NCBI GenBank assembly: GCA_951406725.2
Contig: OX597839.1
Span: 29,450,001 to 29,514,000 of the forward strand
DNA: 64,000 bases
Direction: 5' to 3'
Source of the DNA: Octopus vulgaris
Taxonomy: Eukaryota
Positions 1 to 62,880 of the stretch are shown here, one piece after another. Each line of letters starts with the position of its first letter. The stretch's first letter is position 1. The notes under the pieces were generated by a model that had not been told where the DNA came from, did no database searches, and saw only the letters and a list, made by a program, of their open reading frames with translations. The position numbers and the translations under genes were made by a program.

Positions 1-179
1 GTATGATAAGATGTGGTTAGAGGATGTTGTGACTTTCCTCGCCAACCGTTGAGGTCTCCAAAGGACAAATGATGACCCGACGAGAAAACTACTTCGAAAC
101 TTACAGTTTCTGCAGCACGTTTGTAAAACATCTGTTTCAATACACCGTCAATTGTTTCTAAATATTGGAAATTCTGGGA

Positions 180-735
180 GAAGGGACGAATCGATCATGT
201 GGACCCTAGTGCTCCGTAGGAACCTATTTTATTGAATCCTTAAAAGTCCGCCTCGGAGGGAATTGGATTCGGAGCCTAAAGCCGGAAGAAATACCTATTT
301 CTTTACTACCCACAAGGGGCTAAACACAGAGAGGACAAACAAGGACAGACAAACGGATTAAGTCGATTATATCGACCCCAGTGCGTAACTGGTACTCATT
401 TAATCGACCCCGAAAGGATGAAAGGCAAAATCGCCGGAAGAAATACCTATTTCTTTATTACCCACAAAGGGCTAAACACAGAGGGGACAAACAAGGACAG
501 ACATAGGTATTAAGTCGATTACATCGACCCCAGTGCGTAACTGGTACTTAATTTATCGACCCCGAAAGGATGAAAGGCAAAGTCGACCTCGGCGGAATTT
601 GAACTCACAACGTGACGCAGACGAAATACCGCTAAGCATTTCGCCCGGCGTGCTAACCACTCTGCCAGCTCGCCGGAAGAAATACCGCTAAGCATTTTGT
701 TCGACGCGCTAACGATTCTGTATTCTCGCCACTGA
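180..735 (-). mobile_element. Nested cluster of tRNA-derived SINE family A: an old copy interrupted by two younger long-tailed copies (296-432 5'-truncated; 448-673 full length)
   Basis: Reverse complement gives GGCGAGCTGGCAGA...GAGTTCAAATTCCGCCGAGGTCGACTTTGCCTTTCATCC (A/B-box-like head and body). The 15-bp sequence GCCGGAAGAAATACC recurs at 281-295, 433-447 and 672-686. Confidence 0.9.
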
Positions 736-749
736 CTATTTTAATATTG

Positions 750-890
750 ATTTCAGAATTTGGTACGAGCTCAGTAATTTAGGGGACAGGAAAAAGTCGA
801 TTAAATGGACCCTAGTGCTCAATTGGTCCTTATTTTGGTCCCCGAAAGAATGAAAGGCAAAGTCGACCATGGCGGAATTTGAACTCAGAA
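750..890 (-). mobile_element. SINE A, degenerate partial copy
   Basis: Contains gaaaggcaaagtcgaccatggcggaatttgaactcagaa, shared with the other A copies. Confidence 0.8.
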
Positions 891-1890
891 TTCCTTCCTT
901 TCTTTCTTTCTTTCTTTACTTACCTCTCTCTGTCCCTCCTCTCTCGCCTTTTCTCATCCCCTCTCTCTCTATATCCCTCCTCTTCCTCAACCCCTCCTTT
1001 TTCTCTCAGTCTGACTTCTCTCCCCTTCTCTCACTATCCCTCCTCCTCTCTTGCTGCCCCTCCTCTCACCTTTTCTAATCCTCTCTCTGTCCCCCTCTCT
1101 CTGTGTTCTTCCTCTTCTTTTTCTCTCTCGGTCACTGACCTCTCTCTCTCTCTCCTTCTCTTACAGTCTCCTCCTCCTCTCTCGCCGTCCCTGCTCTCTT
1201 TCTCCTTCAGTGTATGTGTATACCTGTGCGTAAGTGTGTGTGTGTAAAGTCTGTGCGCATGCCCCTGAGTGTCTGTGTGCGTGCGCGCGCGCCTGCTCGA
1301 TTCCGGAGGAGATCTTTCAGAGACAAATTCCTGCTCGCCATAAACCCATCACCAATCACCGGTCTTTCTTATAAGTTTCTCTCTTTTAAGAACTTATCCA
1401 ACACTTCAATGTATAATGCCTTAAACAGTCGTCATGGTAACAACACTAATTCCATTCTCAACGTTTCCGTTTTTTCTCCCTTTTTTCGTTCCGGAAAAAA
1501 TTAACTATTTTGTAATGCATTAACACATTAAAAAGTGAAAATGAAATTAATTAAAAAGATAGAAAAAAGCAAATAAATTTGGAAAGCAAATAAATAAATT
1601 TAGAAAGAAATCGAAGCAAAGCCATAAATCTCGTCTCTCTAAACTCGGCTGGCAGCTAAATCTGCCTAACACGTGACATCTGCTGGTTGACATAAACCAC
1701 ACGATAGACATTTCCAAGCACTGAACGAGTGGGCAGAAAGCATTTCAGACCGGTTCTGTGGATCGTATTGTCGTATCAATAGGAGTTTAATCCGAACCTT
1801 CAAGCGTTTCACATTCTGGGTTAAGGATTTTTGGATCCTCCGGAAGAAAATATACGTCAGAGTTTCATTTTTAAATCTTAAACATTACCC

Positions 1891-2092
1891 ATTTCTTTAC
1901 TACCCACAAGGGGCTAAACACAGAGACAGACAAACAAGGACAGACAAACGGATTAAGTCGATTGTATCGACCCCAGTGCGTAACTGGTACTTATTTAATC
2001 GACCTCGAAAGGATGAAAGGCAAAGTCGACCTCGGCGGAATTTGAACTCAGAACGTAGCGACAGACGAAATACCTATTTCTTTATTACCCAA
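1891..2092 (-). mobile_element. SINE A long-tail copy with the stub of a second A tail inserted at its GGTATTTC site
   Basis: Near-identical to 448-630; junction gacgaaatacctatttctttattaccc at about 2065-2090. Confidence 0.88.
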
Positions 2093-2559
2093 ACAGGAGA
2101 AACACAACTCACTGCATAATAGTATATGTATATATGAATGTATGTATATATAGCTATCTATATTTAACCAGCTGTAAATTTACATAAAGTCACTCAAGGA
2201 CCGAAAGTTTCGTGTATGGCATTTATCTAACATACATGCCCACACACACGTACACACACGCGCACACAAACACACACACACACACATTCACAAACACACA
2301 AACACACACACACACATTCACAAACACACACACACATTCACAAACACACACACACACACGCACACAGACATAGCGCTGAAGATTTAACTTCATGTGACAT
2401 TTCTATGGAAGATGTTTCACGTACGATCAACAACATCAAAGTGTTGGCCACGCATTGAAACATGACGCAATTACGGAAACAATAGTGAAGACCGAACGTA
2501 GGAAGGAACGCTGCAAGGCAGATGTAAAAATATTTCTGACGTTCAGCTGAGTCACGTGT

Positions 2560-2925
2560 TCCAGCACAGGGAGGACTTGTGTGGAATATCCCAAACAAAA
2601 CTTCCCACTTAATGTTAACACGACAGGTTAGACAACCCAATGAGAGAGTCTAACGTGGTCGCATTCATCGGTCTACTAGAAATGGCAGCCAAATCTACGG
2701 CAACAATCCAATGAAGAATAATCTAACGTGGTCGCATTACTCGATCTGCTAGAATTAGTACCCAAATATTTCTAAGGTTGAGCAGAATCACATGTTCTAA
2801 CACAAGGAGGAGTTGTGGAATATTCCTAACAAAGTTCCAAACCTAATGTTAACACAACAGACTTGATAATCCCATAAGAGAGAGTCTAAGGTGATCAAAT
2901 TATTCGATCTGCTCCAGAAACTGAC
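2560..2925. repeat. Locally duplicated interspersed-repeat fragments (tctaacgtggtcgcatt...ctagaaatggcagccaaat, about 3 copies); related pieces at about 6095-6300, 12200-12250 and 48850-48940
   Basis: Three visible degenerate copies of the motif, plus a duplicated gtggaatat...aatgttaacac segment. Confidence 0.6.
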
Positions 2926-2990
2926 ACCTTGGGCAAGTGTCTTCAAAGCCTCGTGAGTAGATCTGGTAGACTGAAACTGAAAGAAGACCA

Positions 2991-3045
<55 letters not shown>

Positions 3046-3205
3046 CATACACACACACAAATGTCACTAAATGTGACTAAGATGTTAGGGAAAAACCTAC
3101 ATTGCTAGAAATAAGAGCTAAACCGCTCTAAAGCTGTAGTTAACGCACATGAAAGGAAGCATATACTCTAACAGGGTATCGTCCAATATGTGCCGATCGA
3201 GAATT

Positions 3206-3263
3206 CCTAATACTGACGCGTCAGTTTCGATAATTTCCGTTGCCTCATCAGTTCCCGTTAGGG
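3206..3263 (-). ncRNA. Type I hammerhead ribozyme motif (PLE pLTR-type)
   Basis: Minus strand: ccctaacgggaa CTGATGA GGCAAcggaaaTTATC GAAA CTGACGCGTCAG TA ttagg. Canonical core, perfect stem III, GUA cleavage triplet, one mismatch in stem II. Confidence 0.8.
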
Positions 3264-3309
3264 TATATGTTTCCATTCATGTGCGTTAATGACTGAAACA
3301 AGTAAAAGA

Positions 3310-3860
3310 TTAGACATCCAGAAATTACGAGAAACAATGCTTTCTGGGTTGAGATTAAGCAGGACCCCATCGACTATCAGCTAGCGAAACCCAAGGAGTG
3401 TTGGCAGAAGGCGGTGAGTTGGCAGAAACGTTAGCACGTCGGGCGAAATGCTTAGCAGTATTTCGTCTGCCGTTACGTTCTGAGTTCAAATTCCGCTGAG
3501 GTCGACTTTACCTTTCATCCTTTCGGAGTCGATAAATTAAGTACCAGTTACGCACTGGGGTCGATATAATCGACTTAATCCGTTTGTCTGTCCTTGTTTG
3601 TTCCCTCTATATTTAGCCCCTTGTGGGCAATAAGGAAATAAGAAAGGTAAGGAGTGTTGAGTCAGCCATGTGTTAAAGAATACCAACATGGATGATGGGC
3701 AAGTCATAGAATGGAACTCAAAAGGAGAGAGAAGCAGGTGACTCGAAGGACACCTGGTTGAGACTGGAACAAGTCGAAGAAAAAATGGCAGAGATGACAT
3801 GGAATCAAGAGGAAATAAAAGCATTGAGCAGAACACATTTGAAGACTGCTACACAAAAAT
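3310..3860 (+). pseudogene. Degenerate RTE-like LINE ORF2 C-terminal fragment interrupted by SINE A
   Basis: Pieces translate as SHVLKN...VIEWNSKGERSR...DTWLR...EMTWNQ...ALSR, resembling the RTE GHVLR...W.P.G.R.RGRP..TW pattern; contains stops and frameshifts. Confidence 0.55.
3408..3645 (+). mobile_element. SINE A full-length long-tail copy with an 11-bp TSD (AAGGAGTGTTG at 3393-3403 and 3649-3659)
   Basis: Full head-to-tail match to the other A copies, with a flanking direct repeat. Confidence 0.92.
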
Positions 3861-4238
3861 CTACCGCATTTGATGGTAAATAAAAAGCAGCTGCTTCAAA
3901 AAAATTACCCCGGATCCTATATACGAAGTTGGGGCTCTCATAAACTTTAATTCACTTAAAGCAATTTTTTGAACTTGTGATTATGCGTTGCTGAAATTGG
4001 GATGCGACAAATATGCTCGTACGACTTTCATGTCATCGAATACGGTGTTCTGTTAGGAATCCGAACAAGCCATGGTGACTATGAAGCTAAATAATTTCTA
4101 TGTTTCTGTTTTTAGCTAAATTTCAATGATGGAACTGTGGTCTTTAGTCAGAGACCAGCCCTCGACTTTACTGCAAAAATTTCAAAGAATTAAAACGAAG
4201 ACAAATAACTACATATGATCACAGTCAGATATAAACGT

Positions 4239-4272
<34 letters not shown>

Positions 4273-4377
4273 TTAGAGTAACACATACAAGTAAACAAAT
4301 GTACCAATACACATGCACATACATGCTCATACACATGCATATACACACAGAGAGAAAAATACACACAGACGTTCGTG

Positions 4378-4628
4378 CTAATGCGCGCACACACACACAA
4401 ACGCTCACGCACACACATACAAACGCTCACGCACACACACACAAACGCTCACGCACACACATACAAACGCTCACGCACACACACACACAAACGCTCACGC
4501 ACACACATACAAACGCTCACGCACACACACACAAACGCTCACGCACACACATACAAACCTTCACGCACACACACACAAACGCTCACGCACACACACACAA
4601 ACGCTCACGCACACACATACAAACGCTC
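4378..4628. repeat. Minisatellite, 20-22 bp unit AAACGCTCACGCACACA(CA)(C/T)AC, about 11 copies
   Basis: Tandem units directly visible. Confidence 0.92.
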
Positions 4629-22085: not shown

Positions 22086-22987
22086 TAGGGCCATCCCATA
22101 AATAATGCAGTTTTTTATACTTTTATTTTTCAAAATTATGATAAGCAAAGTTCTTTTTTAATCTAAAATATACTCTCCTTCATTTTCTTCCATCAATCTT
22201 GTAGACTTGCAAGGCCCCCTCTTCCAAAATTCACTTGTCAGTGACAAAGAATACTCCTCCATTACTCTTTTGACCTCGTCTACAGAATTCACATTTTTTC
22301 CGTCCAAATGATTTTGAAGACTGTGGAATAAATGATAATCAGATGGGGCAATGTCCGGCGAATATGTTGGATGGGACATCGTTTCCCATTCAAACTGCTC
22401 CAGCCTTTGGAATGTCATCCTCGCTGTATGTGGCCGAGCATTATCCTGATGGAAGAACACCCTTCGTCTTGAAACCAAAGATTGTCGTTTTCCCATGGCA
22501 CGCAGCTGTCGATGAATGGTTGGATGACCAAATCCAAGCTTCTCTGCTAGTTCCTCAAAAGTTACGATCAGATTTTGTTCCAGCAGGGTTTGCTCTACGT
22601 CGAGTTCTACAGATTTTTCAGGACGAAGCTCGTCTTCTAGGCTGTAGTTTCCGGCTTGGAATTTCTGGAACCACCGTTGACCCTAGCTTACGCTTATAGT
22701 CCGATCCCCATATACTACATTAATATTCCTCGTGCTTTCCGTTCCGTTGTTGCTTTTATTGAACTCATAAAGCAAAATATGCCAAATATGCTCCTTTCTC
22801 ACTTCCATTAAAGCTTTGAAAAAATAACTGTTAAAATGGAACTGCACTCTTCAAAACTTGCACTAAGAATAAGTACAAAGTAAAATTACTACCTGCTTTT
22901 ATAGCAAGTTGATACAGGTTGTTTATCCCGTCCCCCTCCGACTTTTAGTTCATGCAATTGAAAAGACCGCATTATCTATGGGATGAC

Positions 22988-30585: not shown

Positions 30586-31178
30586 TCCTTCTCGAGCCAT
30601 GCGAGGCTCATAATGGTCGGTTTCCCGGTTTCAGTGGCGTGGAAATTCCCCACCTGGACGGGACGCCGGTCCGTCGCAGGATTATTCGTTTTTGCCAGCT
30701 GAGTGGACTGGAGCAATGTGAAATGAAGTGTTTTGTTCAAGAACACAAAGCATTACCCTGTCAAGGAATTGAAATCACAATCTAGAAGTCATGAGTGCAA
30801 CATCCTAACCATTAGCTGAGTGGACTGGAGCAAAGTGAAATGAAGTGTTTTGCTCAAGAACACAATGCACCGGCCAGTCCAGGAATTGAAACCACAATCT
30901 AGAAGTCATGAGTGCAACATCCTAACCATTAGCTGAGTGGACTGGAGCAAAGTGAAATTAAGTGTTTTGCTCAAGAACACAATGCACCGGCCAGTCCAGG
31001 AATTGAAACCACAATCTAGAAGTCATGAGTGCAACATCCTAACCATTAGCTGAGTGGACTGGAGCAAAGTGAGATGAAGTGTTTTGCTCAAGAACACAAT
31101 GCATCGTCCGGTCCAGGAATCGAAACCATAACCTTACGATCATGAGTTCAACACCCTAACCACTAATCCACGCGCCTC
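30586..31178 (-). mobile_element. SINE C (tail type C3) with a fourfold tandem of the ~117-bp head+core module
   Basis: Units start at 30697, 30813, 30931 and 31048 with agctgagtggactggagca. Confidence 0.92.
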
Positions 31179-41227: not shown

Positions 41228-41735
41228 GCATACATGATGGCTGCCCCCACGTTATCGAGTATGGCCATTGCACGAAGCTTAACTGTTATTGGGGCTGTGA
41301 TCGAATGTGACTTTTTAGCCCAGCTAAAGACCTACAATGTCTTGTACAGAATCGGCAGCTAAAACCTTTACCGGTAATAGCCGGCTGTAGTTGTAACTGG
41401 GCTTCATGTACCTTTGCATGTCGTTTAAGTTCTCCTGCTGAATTACACTCTCTTCCACATGCCTGGCAGATATGATTGGTATGGTGTGTTACACCACCAT
41501 CAGTGGCCAGGTTGTCACTCATCTGTCTCGCTTTATGATTACGAAGATGACTCTTGAGTCCAGCTTTACTGAGGCAGGGTCTTGCACAGACACAGTATGT
41601 CAGCATCATTGGAAGACCCTTCCCATCTGGAAGCGTAACAGCGATGCCCTTCCTGACATCCTTCCTTACTTTCTCATGCGCAACTCGAGATTTCCCAAAA
41701 GTAGCTGTCCCCTCACGCACAATCCTTCTCCATGC
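41228..41735 (-). mobile_element. RTE-clade LINE 3' end encoding three tandem C2H2-like zinc fingers
   Basis: AWRRIVREGTATF...(Y)CVCARPCLSKAGLKSHLRNH...CQACGRECNSAGELKRHAKVH...CRFCTRHCRSLAGLKSHIRS; tail GGCCATACTCGATAACGTGGGGGCAGCCATCATGTAT. Confidence 0.8.
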
Positions 41736-43524
41736 ATACATACATACATACATACATTCCAAAAAATCCTGTTGTTGATGTTAAAATTCCAATGAAGGAG
41801 CCTTGGATCTAGGTTGGAAACCGGCTCTTTCTCTATTGACAAAGAATCTTGAAATAAATTTTTACACACACACACACACATATTAAGAAACAGATGTAGA
41901 AATATGCACATATACATATGTATGTATGCATGTATATATATATATGTGTGTGTCTATATGCACAAGTATACATACGTACACATAACCACAAGCACACACA
42001 CACACACACACTCACACATAAAATGAATATACATATGCACACAACCACATTATACACGCCGTACACTCACACATGTCCCTCCAAACAATTACAAACAACC
42101 CCATGTCGTTCTCTCTCTCTTTCTCTCTCCCTCTCTATTCCCCCCTCCCTCTTTTTCTTTTTATTAATTTCAATTCACTTCTCGTCCGCTCTCTCGTGAT
42201 GTCGCCCGAGCAGCAGCGAATCTTTTCTCTTCTCCGCCATTCCAACATCAGTCACTTGTCGACATGATGTCCACATGAATATTATTTTAATTTATTTAGC
42301 CATCTTCCGGCTATTGTCAGCCATCGAGTGTCTGCTGTCTGTGCGGATGGGTTTCTTTATCTCTCTACAGTCTTGCCCAATCATCATCATCATGATCATC
42401 ATGATCATCAACATCTTCTTCTTCTTCTCCTCCTCCTCCTTCTACACTACTCTCACAAACTGTTTGAAAGTGTGTGCATGTGTAAATGTATGCATATATA
42501 TATATATATATATATGATTGTATATATATGTATGTATGTATATATATATATGTATGTGTAAATATATGGGCATATATATATGTATGTATATGTATATATA
42601 TATATGTATTTATACATACATATATACACGCACATATATATCTACATATGATACATGTACATGCACACACACACATATACATATAGATAGATATACATAT
42701 ACATACATGTATGTATACACATATATATATACTCACACGTTCGCAGATACATACACGCTTGCATATACACACACGTAAATGTGTATGAGTGCCAATATGT
42801 ATGCATGTATGTAGAGACCAGCGTTTCTATCAAATACATAAACCTGTTATATTGAAGACAACTGTATTCGAGTTTAAGCAATGTTTTAATAAAGATTTGT
42901 CCATATTTCCGTACTAGTTCCTTATGTTTAATTTGGAATAATACCGTTTTGCTCCAGGGCCTTCTTGGTTTTGGAATAATCAAAGTGGTGATGTTGCCTT
43001 ATTTTGTAGTAGGCAGCAAATGATGATCGGAATGGTGTAACAGATAGTCTTTGAATTTGTCATCCAGTAAAGAAGTATTAAAGAGTTAAAAGAAAACGGA
43101 TACGTTCGAACAAGTTTCTCATTTTCAGAAGAAACTAGAGCTCATCTTCTTTCTACAAATTTTCATGCCTTTTTGCTTAAATTCCTTCCTTCAATATGTC
43201 TTCCGCATTTTATCATCTTTATACCGACCAACATGAAACTGCACACCCTACCATCCTCTGCACGCATAGAAGAAAACCCACCCTACTAACACAGAAAGAA
43301 ACTAGTCCTGACTCATATCACACACACACACACACACGCGCACACACACACACACATACACACACACTCCCACACACACTTTCGCTCAAGGCCATACACC
43401 TCAGATCTCCAAACCCACACCCGATGTTATCTTAAGCGCGTCTGCGAACACATGTACAACGCACACTCACCCTTTTATGAGCACCTTATCAACATTCTTA
43501 TATTTATACGAATAACACACGCAC

Positions 43525-54055: not shown

Positions 54056-54096
<41 letters not shown>

Positions 54097-54099
<3 letters not shown>

Positions 54100-54400
54100 C
54101 TTTATTGCCCACAAGGGCTAAACATAGAGGGGATAAACAAGGAGATACAAAGGGATTAAGTCGATTACATCGACCCCAGTGCGTAACTGGTACTTTATCG
54201 ACCCCGAAAAGATGAAAGGCAAAGTCGACTTCGGCGGAATTTGACCTCAGAACACGAAGACAGACGAAATACCTATTTCTTTACTACCCACAAGGGGCTA
54301 GACACAGACAAACTGATTAAGTCGGTTATATCGACCCCAGTGCGTTACTGGTAATTAATTTATCGACCCCGAAAGGATGAAAGTCAAAGTCGACCTCGGT
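54097..54400 (-). mobile_element. Two nested SINE A long-tail copies joined at GGTATTTC
   Basis: Junction cagacgaaatacctatttctttactaccc at 54261-54289. Confidence 0.88.
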
Positions 54401-54415
54401 GTATATATATATATA

Positions 54416-55559
54416 TTTTTTTTTTTCTAGTTTCAGCTCAGAGCTGCGGCCATGCTGATGCACCGCCGTTTTGTGCTACACTGTTATTGCGAAGAGCCTC
54501 GTCTAATATGTGGCACTTGGTGAAGAATGGAGTTTGATACAGCTACTCTCATTTGCACCTCTTGCCGTGAGGTAGGTTCATCTGGGACTCTTGACAGGAA
54601 GATGTCCAGCTTTGATTTAAAAACCGCTACATCTACTTTGTGCAAGTTCCTCAGACTCTTTGGGAGAATATTAAAAAGCTGTGGGCCCTTGAAACCCAGG
54701 CTGTTGCAGAAGCTGGTCCTGAAGCGTGATGGCATTGCTGGGATCTTTGGCACTATGCAGTGTCGTCCCGTTCTAGCATTGGTGTAGCTTACAATGCCAA
54801 AATTTGGCACAATTCCTTCCAGGATCTTCCAGACATATATTACTGCATACCTCTCCCGTCTTCTCTCCAGGGAGTAGAGTCTCAGCTGTTTCAACCTTTC
54901 CCAGTAGCTGAGCTGTTGCAAAGAGACGATATTCTTTGTGAATCTTCTCTGGATTGCTTCAAGGTCCGCTGTTAATTTTACACTGGTGGGTGACCATAGC
55001 TGTGAGCAGTAATCCAGGCGACTGAGGACGAATGTCCGCTAGAGGACCATCATGGTTTCCTTATCTCTGGTTCTGAATGTTCTTAGGATCCACCCAGCCA
55101 GTCGTCTGCACTTTGTCACCATCCTGGTAATGTGCACTTGGAAAGAGGTATCATCACTCATGTCGATACCCAGGTCCCTCACAGACTTCGGATCTGGGAT
55201 TGAAATTCCCTGTGGACCGGTGTATCCTGTAAGTTTAATGTTCAGTTTTGGATGCTGGTAGCGCAGGGCCTGGAATTTTTCAGCATTAAACTGCATATTA
55301 TTATCCTCAGCCCATCTGTAGATTGAGTCCAACTCCTGCTGCAGGTGTGCAACATCGCTGGGGTTCTGTATTTTCTGCGAGACTTTTGTATCGTCTGCAT
55401 AGCTGGCCAGAGTGGCTATCCGGGCATTTGAGGGCATATCTGAGAGGGCCACTATAAAAAGCAGTGGTCCCAAGACAGTGCCCTGTGGAACACCGCTCAC
55501 TATTTGTGTGTTCATAGAGGTGGCTCCATTAACCACTACTGCCTGACTCCTATCTTTCA

Positions 55560-55560
<1 letters not shown>
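54416..55560 (-). mobile_element. 5'-truncated CR1/L2-group LINE (RT C-terminal half, short 3' UTR, poly-A) inserted in (TA)n
   Basis: SGVPQGTVLGPLLF, YADDTK, ERLKQLRLYSLERRRERY; poly-A (poly-T on the plus strand) at 54416-54426. Confidence 0.92.
54484..55560 (-). pseudogene. LINE reverse transcriptase ORF with a single in-frame TAG (55039-55041)
   Basis: ORFs 55039-55560 and 54484-54921 share a frame; read-through gives MMVL*RTFVLSRLDYCSQLWSP...LEAIQRRFTK. Confidence 0.9.
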
Positions 55561-55619
<59 letters not shown>

Positions 55620-55620
<1 letters not shown>

Positions 55621-56160
55621 ATAAAACGGTAAGATAACAAAAGAAAGAAAGAGACCTCAATATTATGTAAATAGAGGAAATTTATCTATACAATATGTTA
55701 CATTACTCGGTAGTCAAGATAAAACTCTGAGTTTCAGATGCCGAAGTGGAAATCCACAACACCATCTCTTCGGTTATCTGGCTATTTGAAAACGTTATGA
55801 AAAAATACCGTTAAAAATGAAGGGAAATTACTCTGTTATAACTCTGCTTTGCCTGCGTACTTATACATCGCTCGCATTTTTCGTCATAAAAATTATATAA
55901 AAATACATAAAAATATATAAAAATATATAAAAATATATAAAATCTTCTTGGGACATAACACAGAAAGCATGTTCTATCCGTTTTCTTTAGGGGACCAAAA
56001 ACGTAACAGAAATTTAGTCACATGTGGGCATGATCCGAAAAGCTCTGTCCTTGTATTTAGACATGTGGTAGGGTCTAAGCTGCTTTTCCAGATAAGCCAT
56101 CTCTCCATGTCGCATAAACCGCACCTTCCGCTGCCGTTAGTATAGGGCTGCCGTTAGCGT
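55620..56160 (-). mobile_element. Naiad-type PLE 3' end (endonuclease C-terminus, 3' UTR and pLTR) between (TA)n tracts
   Basis: PYTNGSGRCGLCDMERWLIWKSSLDPTTCLNTRTELFGSCPHVTKFLL matches the PY.....C.LC..E...I....LN.R.EL...C.H..KF.L pattern; not in the ORF track. Confidence 0.78.
55711..55784 (-). ncRNA. Variant-core hammerhead motif in the Naiad pLTR
   Basis: AGATAA CCGAAGA GATG..GTGGAttTCCAC..CATC t GAAA CTCAGAG TT TTATCT. Confidence 0.6.
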
Positions 56161-62289: not shown

Positions 62290-62880
62290 AGTCCTTTGAC
62301 AGTCCGCGTAAACTATCAGGCCTGAAATCTCGGGACAACGAACAAGTGCGTGCGGGACGGTGTCCTCATAAGGCGGCGAGCTGGCAGAAGCGTTAGCACG
62401 CCGGGCGAAATGCTTAGCGATATTTCGTCTGTCTTTACGTTCTGAGTTCAAATTCCGCCGAGGTCGACTTTGCCTTTCATTCTTTCGGGGTCGATTAAAT
62501 AAGTACCAGTTACGCACTGGAGTCGATATAATCGACTTAATCCGTTTGTCTGTCCTTCTTTGTCCCCTCTGTGTTTAGCCCCTTGTGGGTAGTAAAGAAA
62601 TAGGTATCCTCATCCCGCCTGCACCTTGGGCAAGCTGGTGGTACAGACATGCCGTGTCTGGACAGTTTATCACGAACAAGTAAAGCATTCCTATATAACT
62701 GCCACGTCAGGGATTTCTGGTAGGTATCCAGATAACCCGACCCGAAGGTTCTTTTAAACGGGTTGGCCAGCCGGTCCTCATCGAGTCCCAGAAGCTCTCC
62801 CAGGACGTCATCTCTCTTGGACTCCACCAGTCCGCTGCAGGCCTTGCCCGCCTTGTGGATGCGCACGAGTGCCAGTCGGC
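62290..62880 (-). pseudogene. Tx1/L1 ORF2 zinc-knuckle fragment interrupted by SINE A
   Basis: YQKSLTWQLYRNALLVRDKLSRHGMSVPPACPRCRRD|EDTVPHALVRCP (CCHC). Confidence 0.82.
62370..62602 (+). mobile_element. SINE A full-length long-tail copy; TSD GGTGTCCTCAT (62359-62369) / GGTATCCTCAT (62603-62613)
   Basis: Complete element with a flanking direct repeat carrying one mismatch. Confidence 0.93.

Follow-up and report, generated by a model that had tools for sequence, protein, structure and literature searches.

Nested copies of an octopus SINE at base 45 of its own family, and a LINE that shares their tail and site

In the genome of Octopus vulgaris, about one third of the tails of a SINE run directly into base 45 of the same family, and at one locus two separate insertions at this base can be read off the DNA. 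The element was called a tRNA-type SINE, with A- and B-box-like motifs recognized by eye. Exact-pattern searches of the 2.8 Gb genome, with counts that represent minimum values and that arrays inflate, gave 110,234 SINE tails, 33,745 of them followed by GGTATTTC, 6,561 by GGTAT and a base other than T, and 6,261 by AGAAA. A LINE with a very similar tail is found at the same base, and its enzyme probably inserts the SINE there, aimed by a loose nick together with pairing of an RNA 3' end that reads through the tail into GGUAU and the bases beyond.

The window analyzed is a stretch of 64,000 nt (contig OX597839.1, positions 29,450,001 to 29,514,000), and the legible locus lies on its minus strand at 181..730. 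An earlier note on this DNA had reported three exact occurrences of the 15-mer GCCGGAAGAAATACC, at 281, 433 and 672, and had read them as two insertions at one nucleotide with one TSD. The three matches were recovered, with none in 100 shuffles, and the anatomy of the locus bears out the reading. On the minus strand the 15-mer becomes GGTATTTCTTCCGGC, which is both the TSD and bases 45-59 of the old host SINE, and the parts are:

687..730, minus strand: head of the old host SINE, bases 1-44, with 11 differences from the young head
672..686, minus strand: TSD copy 1, GGTATTTCTTCCGGC, host bases 45-59
448..674, minus strand: young full-length SINE copy of 227 nt with a TAAT tail, its first GGC overlapping the TSD
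433..447, minus strand: TSD copy 2
296..432, minus strand: young 5'-truncated SINE copy starting at about base 91, with a TAGT tail and a haplotype unlike that of the full copy
281..295, minus strand: TSD copy 3
181..280, minus strand: rest of the old host SINE, highly diverged and placed by alignment

The marks of TPRT are present, as the 15-bp TSD occurs three times and flanks the inserts, one of which is 5'-truncated; at its 5' junction the full copy overlaps the TSD by 3-4 nt of microhomology. Between the two young copies there are 11 differences, eight of which fall in polymorphic columns of the family, and the three TSDs are identical. Since the copies differ in haplotype while their TSDs do not, the locus is confirmed as two separate insertions in an older relative, both at its base 45, and tandem duplication, which the earlier note had offered as a refutation, is ruled out here, even though TRF reports 281-585 as a 152-bp dimer. 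An empty allele was not seen when contigs of four public runs were compared with window 1-2300, a comparison swamped by repeat copies; one contig of organism B, from a public run, spans window 1-306 including the downstream junction. The other SINE copies considered in the window are:

1891..2106, minus strand: truncated array of two units, [195-227][45-227], joined at 2074
54095..54399, minus strand: truncated array of two units, [83-227][45-227], within a (TA)n site and joined at 54273
3409..3648, plus strand: single SINE copy, tail extended by AGAAAGGT, sequence read directly
62371..62602, plus strand: single SINE copy, TSD GGTGTCCTCAT (62359-62369) and GGTATCCTCAT (62603-62613)

The tail-to-GGTATTTC junctions that had been noted near 2070 and 54270 are real, at 2074 and 54273, but neither has a host head in front of it, so that they represent a different structure from 281..686; for the array at 1891..2106 neither a host head nor a TSD was found. 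GGTAA at 1887-1891 reads as had been claimed, and a search for a TSD there found none. The GGTAAG noted at 3646 is correct for a downstream GGT, but this is present downstream only and, like the AGAAAGGT extension, falls outside the TSD AAGGAGTGTTG (3393-3403 and 3649-3659). At 62603 the downstream flank does read GGTAT, but the upstream TSD copy is GGTGT; this copy lies inside a decayed minus-strand L1/Tx1-type ORF2 of another family than the SINE-targeting LINE. ARAGORN found no tRNA gene in window 1-4500.

The preference for base 45 was examined in 154 tails from loci not picked by their flank, mostly from the first 3 Mb of contig C1. The next sequence was SINE base 45 in 68 of them (66 scored, plus the two window sites, which the script missed owing to the old host), base 12 in three, base 49, base 59 and antisense SINE in one each, and other DNA in 80. 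The nested junctions are therefore far from uniformly distributed, contrary to one of the outcomes that the earlier note had said would count against it. Among the 83 tails that were not scored as running into sense SINE (the two window sites included), GGTAT follows exactly in 15 and within one mismatch in 39, against backgrounds of 0.08% and 1.6%. TSDs called in 33 unselected loci are 11-23 bp long, mostly 12-17, and no conserved sequence was found upstream of the nick at the unselected tails.

One account of such a bias would be that a Tx1-type endonuclease prefers GGTA(T/A) and that the SINE merely holds this word at base 45. Target choice in Tx1 elements is credited mainly to the endonuclease in the available text of PMC4494074, the LINE described below is highly site-specific, sister LINEs of the same genome have fixed sites of their own, and GGTAT is mostly present in both TSD copies. 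An enzyme acting alone nevertheless appears rather unlikely as the full explanation. In 40 ten-kb loci, SINE base-45 sites make up 43 of 548 non-junction GGTAT words (8%), and the share of junctions at base 45 is far above this; the motif follows SINE tail variants and LINE subfamilies, the flank upstream of the nick is without a conserved sequence, and neither the single-head composites nor the fixed variant head before subfamily-1 LINEs (see later) would be explained. The proposed preference is thus upheld as a strong GGTA(T)-like enrichment (39 of 83 within one mismatch), but the idea that enzyme preference alone sets the motif is not supported.

The status of GGTAT was followed through TSDs anchored on bases past the motif, with a false-positive rate of 0.8%, which were found in 75 of 157 non-nested copies. 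Where GGTAT stands downstream (n=36), the upstream TSD copy agrees at 30, 34, 33, 32 and 34 loci for the successive positions, and where AGAAA does (n=11), at 7, 9, 10, 9 and 9. Since the upstream copy mostly carries the same word, the GGTAT-like word is usually part of the target. Among 33 unselected TSDs, loci in which the two copies disagree show the likeness to the tail on the downstream side in 7 cases versus 1 (p=0.07), an asymmetry that is suggestive only as a sign of an RNA-borne motif. The word also depends on the tail that precedes it. CAAT tails, counted by eye, make up 62 of 100 before AGAAA, 4 of 200 before GGTAT and 17 of the first 100 listed tails (Fisher p 1e-32, with rows that are not independent). 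CAAT copies are slightly older (3.6% vs 3.1%), so that different enzymes acting at different times could mimic this coupling of motif and lineage. Of 218 SINE junctions, 201 have G at base 45 and one has C, yet C occupies this position in 54 of 286 heads. GGTAT is a target word and apparently an RNA end as well, since the word that follows the tail changes with the SINE or LINE subfamily. The possibility that GGTAT is a fixed part of the SINE tail, which the earlier note had named as a refutation, is accordingly half realized: the word is mostly in the upstream TSD copy, yet it tracks the RNA lineage. Its suggested likeness to a splice donor was not supported, as GT follows GGTAT in 8 of 74 cases, which is no enrichment in a sample mostly picked for a non-T next base.

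The partner LINE family was reached through two clear LINE tails in 20 hand-picked rows, and has 84 exact tails genome-wide. Of its last 33 bases, 30 agree with the CAAT tail of the SINE, and the predicted GCCC/GGGC hairpin is the same. The family encodes an ORF2 with an APE endonuclease, an RT and a C-terminal zinc knuckle, the Pfam domains Exo_endo_phos, RVT_1 and zf-RVT being found on L410, L245 and L258; the best solved relative of the L245 ORF2 is human L1 ORF2p (E 2e-53, with R2 at E 3e-20), and L410 and L245 share 56% identity over 1107 aa. By its domains, homology and target preference the partner is an L1-group LINE, likely of Tx1 type; no named Tx1 reference was present among the 120 homologs listed or their clusters. 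The expectation that a sequence-specific Tx1-type enzyme stands behind the SINE is thereby strengthened, an L1/Tx1-type LINE with the same tail having been found at the same site, and it is likely that the ORF2 of this LINE moved the SINE in trans. A second L1-group LINE family, with 7,809 exact tails that match the SINE at 25-26 of 33 bases and with TATCT sites, could be an additional mover. This family (L183-L212, L245) has intact ORF2s of 1149 aa and sits mostly in (TCTA)n/TATCT sites.

Other candidates for the partner were rejected. An RTE-like LINE, followed for 420 bases past the stop in 12 loci, gave no tail match by eye, its 3' end lying beyond the loci; the CR1-like fragment at 54484-55656 of the window ends in another tail; and relatives of the Tx1-like family in the window match at 18-21 of 33 tail bases. 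A pattern for a TCTA-family sibling with the SINE hairpin gave two matches, and one for non-SINE tails before GGTATTTC gave no LINEs in 30 loci. A non-SINE tail at L306, which has AATAAAG and a hairpin like that of the SINE, is followed about 15 bases on by SINE base 45, and possibly represents a further LINE family close to this site.

The sequence after the LINE is SINE base 45 in 36 of 40 extended loci (35 scored, plus L377, which has the same start and an internal deletion); three of the other four continue with a TSD-like stretch and another element, and one is at GATAT in other DNA. At L400, L405 and L408 the LINE precedes a TSD-like GGTATTGCGTC and the same element, which is probably another stacked retroelement. 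Base 45 after LINE subfamily 1 is C in 22 of 24 and T in two, and after subfamily 2 it is G in 14 of 16. Subfamily-1 copies with a 5' end have C45 upstream in 21 of 21 and a GCGTAGCC head in 20 of 21, these 21 representing 20 independent loci, as two come from one duplicated locus; three of the 20 with this head have older, non-A remainders, in which the GCGTAGCC head is otherwise rare (2 of 48). The SINE remainders beside the LINE vary between loci and several have outer TSDs of their own. The simplest reading of these flanks is that the LINE RNA would carry SINE sequence at both ends; alternatively, for subfamily 1, the enzyme may pick hosts with C45.

Nests as legible as that of the window are uncommon. 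When 102 junction-bearing arrays were scored, 80 had a single head, 18 were 5'-truncated and four had a host head upstream; revision by eye showed that one of these four is not a nest, and that L043, L089 and L091, scored as single-head, are. The exact double-head pattern of host, TSD and new head was found 150 times genome-wide, against 33,745 tail junctions. In 30 double-head loci a host head stood upstream in 20, with a downstream TSD of no more than two mismatches in 14 of the 20 (13 distinct), and 10 loci were at an existing tail junction, like the second insertion of the window. Host heads differ from the young head at a mean of 7.0 positions in 13 nests and at 11 in the window, compared with 4.1 for lone young copies. 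The window holds a rare legible form of nesting, and the self-nested arrays that the earlier note envisaged are supported by the concentration of junctions at base 45 but not by TSD-separated nests, which are few. Head and TSD are also found repeated eight times (G000:C10:17996023-17996504) and four times (C13:69036077-69036321), with periods of 64-69 bp, a form attributed to an exchange of one head of a nest with the other.

In the composites, a seamless insertion that kept host bases 1-60 was rejected, as bases 45-60 of the first and last units were identical in 2 of 65 (null 3.4%); because of this mismatch no TSD is left to prove insertion in place. Local duplication of units after insertion does occur. 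Among 78 pairs of neighboring units, 19, or about a quarter, share at least two private changes (null 0.4%) and are local duplicates, and the 64-69-bp head tandems and the TRF dimer call at 281-585 are of the kind that duplication would give. As the main source of junctions it is highly improbable, since 43 of the 78 pairs have unlike haplotypes without shared private changes, the window copies differ at eight polymorphic columns between identical TSDs, and duplication is unable to produce A..B or LINE junctions at base 45. It is refuted as the main cause and at the window locus, and remains a secondary process.

A further explanation places the junctions at the level of RNA or cDNA, where read-through RNAs of several units, or a switch of template that leaves one RNA at base 45 and enters another at its GGUAU end, would give composites that insert whole at ordinary sites, with true nests a minority. 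This would agree with the 80 of 102 arrays scored as single-head, often with one outer TSD, and with unit ages that are equal by role. A..A arrays show no age order, the last unit being older than the first in 32 and younger in 28. L091 contains a three-unit block within one TSD, and L046 is a copy ending inside its second unit. The outer TSDs of A..B composites also look partly young, with a mismatch of 7.3% (22/302) compared with 4.6% (47/1012) for A and 9.2% (20/217) for B, neither difference being significant, and they were found in 20 of 39 A..B, 66 of 116 A and 12 of 47 B copies; given this intermediate age and A-like recovery, insertion of whole composites also fits. Against such an origin, the B part of A..B composites lies 7.4% from the consensus, like lone B (7.7%) and about twice as far as young units (3.1-3.6%), and the B remainders have few mutations in common, being 13.9% apart pairwise and unrelated to each other. 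A small set of multimer masters was likewise rejected, as unit pairs are not repeated among the 33 arrays (Mantel r -0.02) and the B remainders are independent, and the SINE remainders beside the LINE vary by locus and have their own outer TSDs. Whole insertion of preformed composites is, on balance, unlikely as the general source. The heads of A..B composites are mostly young, with 5.2 differences versus 4.1 in lone A and 8.9 in lone B, in a comparison from which loci selected because of a nest or the LINE were excluded.

In the favored mechanism, insertion at base 45 by the LINE enzyme, the ORF2 would make a loosely specific nick, and the SINE and LINE RNAs would extend past the tail into the next SINE from base 45 onward. 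Such RNAs would be expected to end in ...AAAGAAAUAGGUAU or in a longer SINE read-through, with a SINE head on the LINE RNA. The read-through would pair with the target or primer and the longest match would win, which would direct insertion to other SINE copies, five-base GGTAT-like words elsewhere serving as a fallback that is used less precisely. At the 5' end the SINE head of the cDNA would usually anneal to the host head and replace it, leaving single-head composites of the form [1-227][45-end]; if the host is too diverged, as in the window, or if annealing fails, a microhomology junction would form and the head, TSD and insert would remain visible. Every insertion would renew a base-45 site, so that stacks grow, and some would lengthen further by local duplication. 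A broader extension of this mechanism may be put forward only tentatively, namely that the target itself is inherited through the RNA, the read-through overwriting both host flanks and turning old SINEs into young-headed composites that act as new promoters and new insertion sites. Part of this extension, and no less tentative, would be a self-renewing loop that is aimed by RNA and spread over tens of thousands of loci.

Several known systems resemble parts of this arrangement. In crocodilians, SINEU-3 and the LINE Tx1-Mar share a target in the repeat Mariner-N4_AMi, and tandem copies around the TSD were read as sequential insertions, according to the available text of PMC4494074. There, as in the octopus, a SINE and a Tx1-type LINE use one target within a repeat; unlike in the octopus, the crocodilian target is another transposon, whereas here it is the SINE family itself, so that the LINE targets its own passenger; a second head is absent from most junctions, and the target word goes with the RNA lineage. 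The same source describes Tx1L in Tx1D, and Keno, Kibi and Koshi, as non-LTR elements of APE type whose targets are fixed and lie in repeats, snRNA genes or microsatellites (PMC4494074), and sister families of the octopus LINE, whose sites are (TCTA)n and the beginning of U2, are comparable. Tx1 kinship in the octopus is by domains and homology, and no self-renewing SINE target is described for those elements in the text available (PMC4494074). For RTE-related SINEs, the accessible part of PMC6007223 reports that one partner LINE serves SINEs with different 3' ends, which have different target starts (first TSD base). That match is of 1-2 bases from a microsatellite tail, whereas the octopus one is of about five bases or more and is an internal stretch of the SINE.

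For R2, annealing of an RNA that carries upstream 28S sequence has been proposed to give seamless 5' junctions, while a short duplication persists at a minority of junctions and junction variants can propagate (PMC3774820, text seen in part). By analogy, the octopus mechanism would resemble R2 in one step, the annealing of RNA-borne target sequence at the 5' junction. The octopus LINE is not a member of the R2 clade, having an APE-domain ORF2 and a mobile SINE target, unlike R2 with its ribozyme and rRNA (28S) target. The R2 endonuclease is of a different class from APE, being restriction-like. The genomic pattern of heads and base 45 would fit an R2-like template RNA with target sequence at its ends.

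The octopus tRNA/CORE SINEs OR1 and OR2 are named in PMC4824008 and PMC4758252 and, compared by description only, resemble the present element as abundant tRNA-type SINEs; neither a Tx1 tail nor self-targeting is mentioned in the available portions of these accounts. Octopus repeat surveys list L1-Tx1 elements and abundant SINEs and, in the portions available, are silent on targets and nesting (PMC13282606, PMC8967140, PMC4824008, PMC4758252). A SINE targeted by its own partner LINE was not found in the literature searched, and within that partly accessible literature this form of Tx1-type transposon targeting, with one family serving as both passenger and target, is apparently new.

The system offers a very large natural test set for the roles of the endonuclease and of RNA-DNA pairing in non-LTR target choice, in that two LINE subfamilies and several SINE variants, which differ in one target base, use a single site. 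It suggests that an APE-type enzyme could be retargeted through its RNA flanks, and if RNA with landing-site sequence helps the enzyme to aim, the repeat would likely go on producing the sites on which it lands. Should insertion replace the head of the host, the SINE copies would be age mosaics, affecting repeat dating and subfamily trees.

Other retroelements were noticed in passing. An L1/Tx1-type family lies directly before base 1 of U2 snRNA genes (L233, L235, L239, L255 and L259; U2 genes at L259:8664-8857 and 1360-1553), with one stack showing a 14-bp U2 stretch between two copies, and other copies of this family precede a repeated ATCGAA... element without an Rfam match. Another Tx1-like family is arrayed head to tail and repeats about every 5.28 kb (L256, L257 and L261; G000 C9, C27 and C6). 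SINE tails have a second hot spot, before GGTACTGG or GG(C/T)ATCAGCC (L009, L012, L014, L015 and L023), in a repeat that to the eye is similar to the RTE-like LINE's 3' UTR, and at L027:1290-1480 a palindromic MITE-like element lies within a SINE copy. The minus strand of the window also carries an RT fragment of a CR1-like LINE (54484-55656, clade by eye), a mariner-like transposase fragment (22158-22682, by eye) and a C2H2 zinc-finger frame (41286-41780). Four tandem 117-bp units at 30697-31162 of the window belong to another SINE-like sequence, and possibly reflect the same stacking in a different family.
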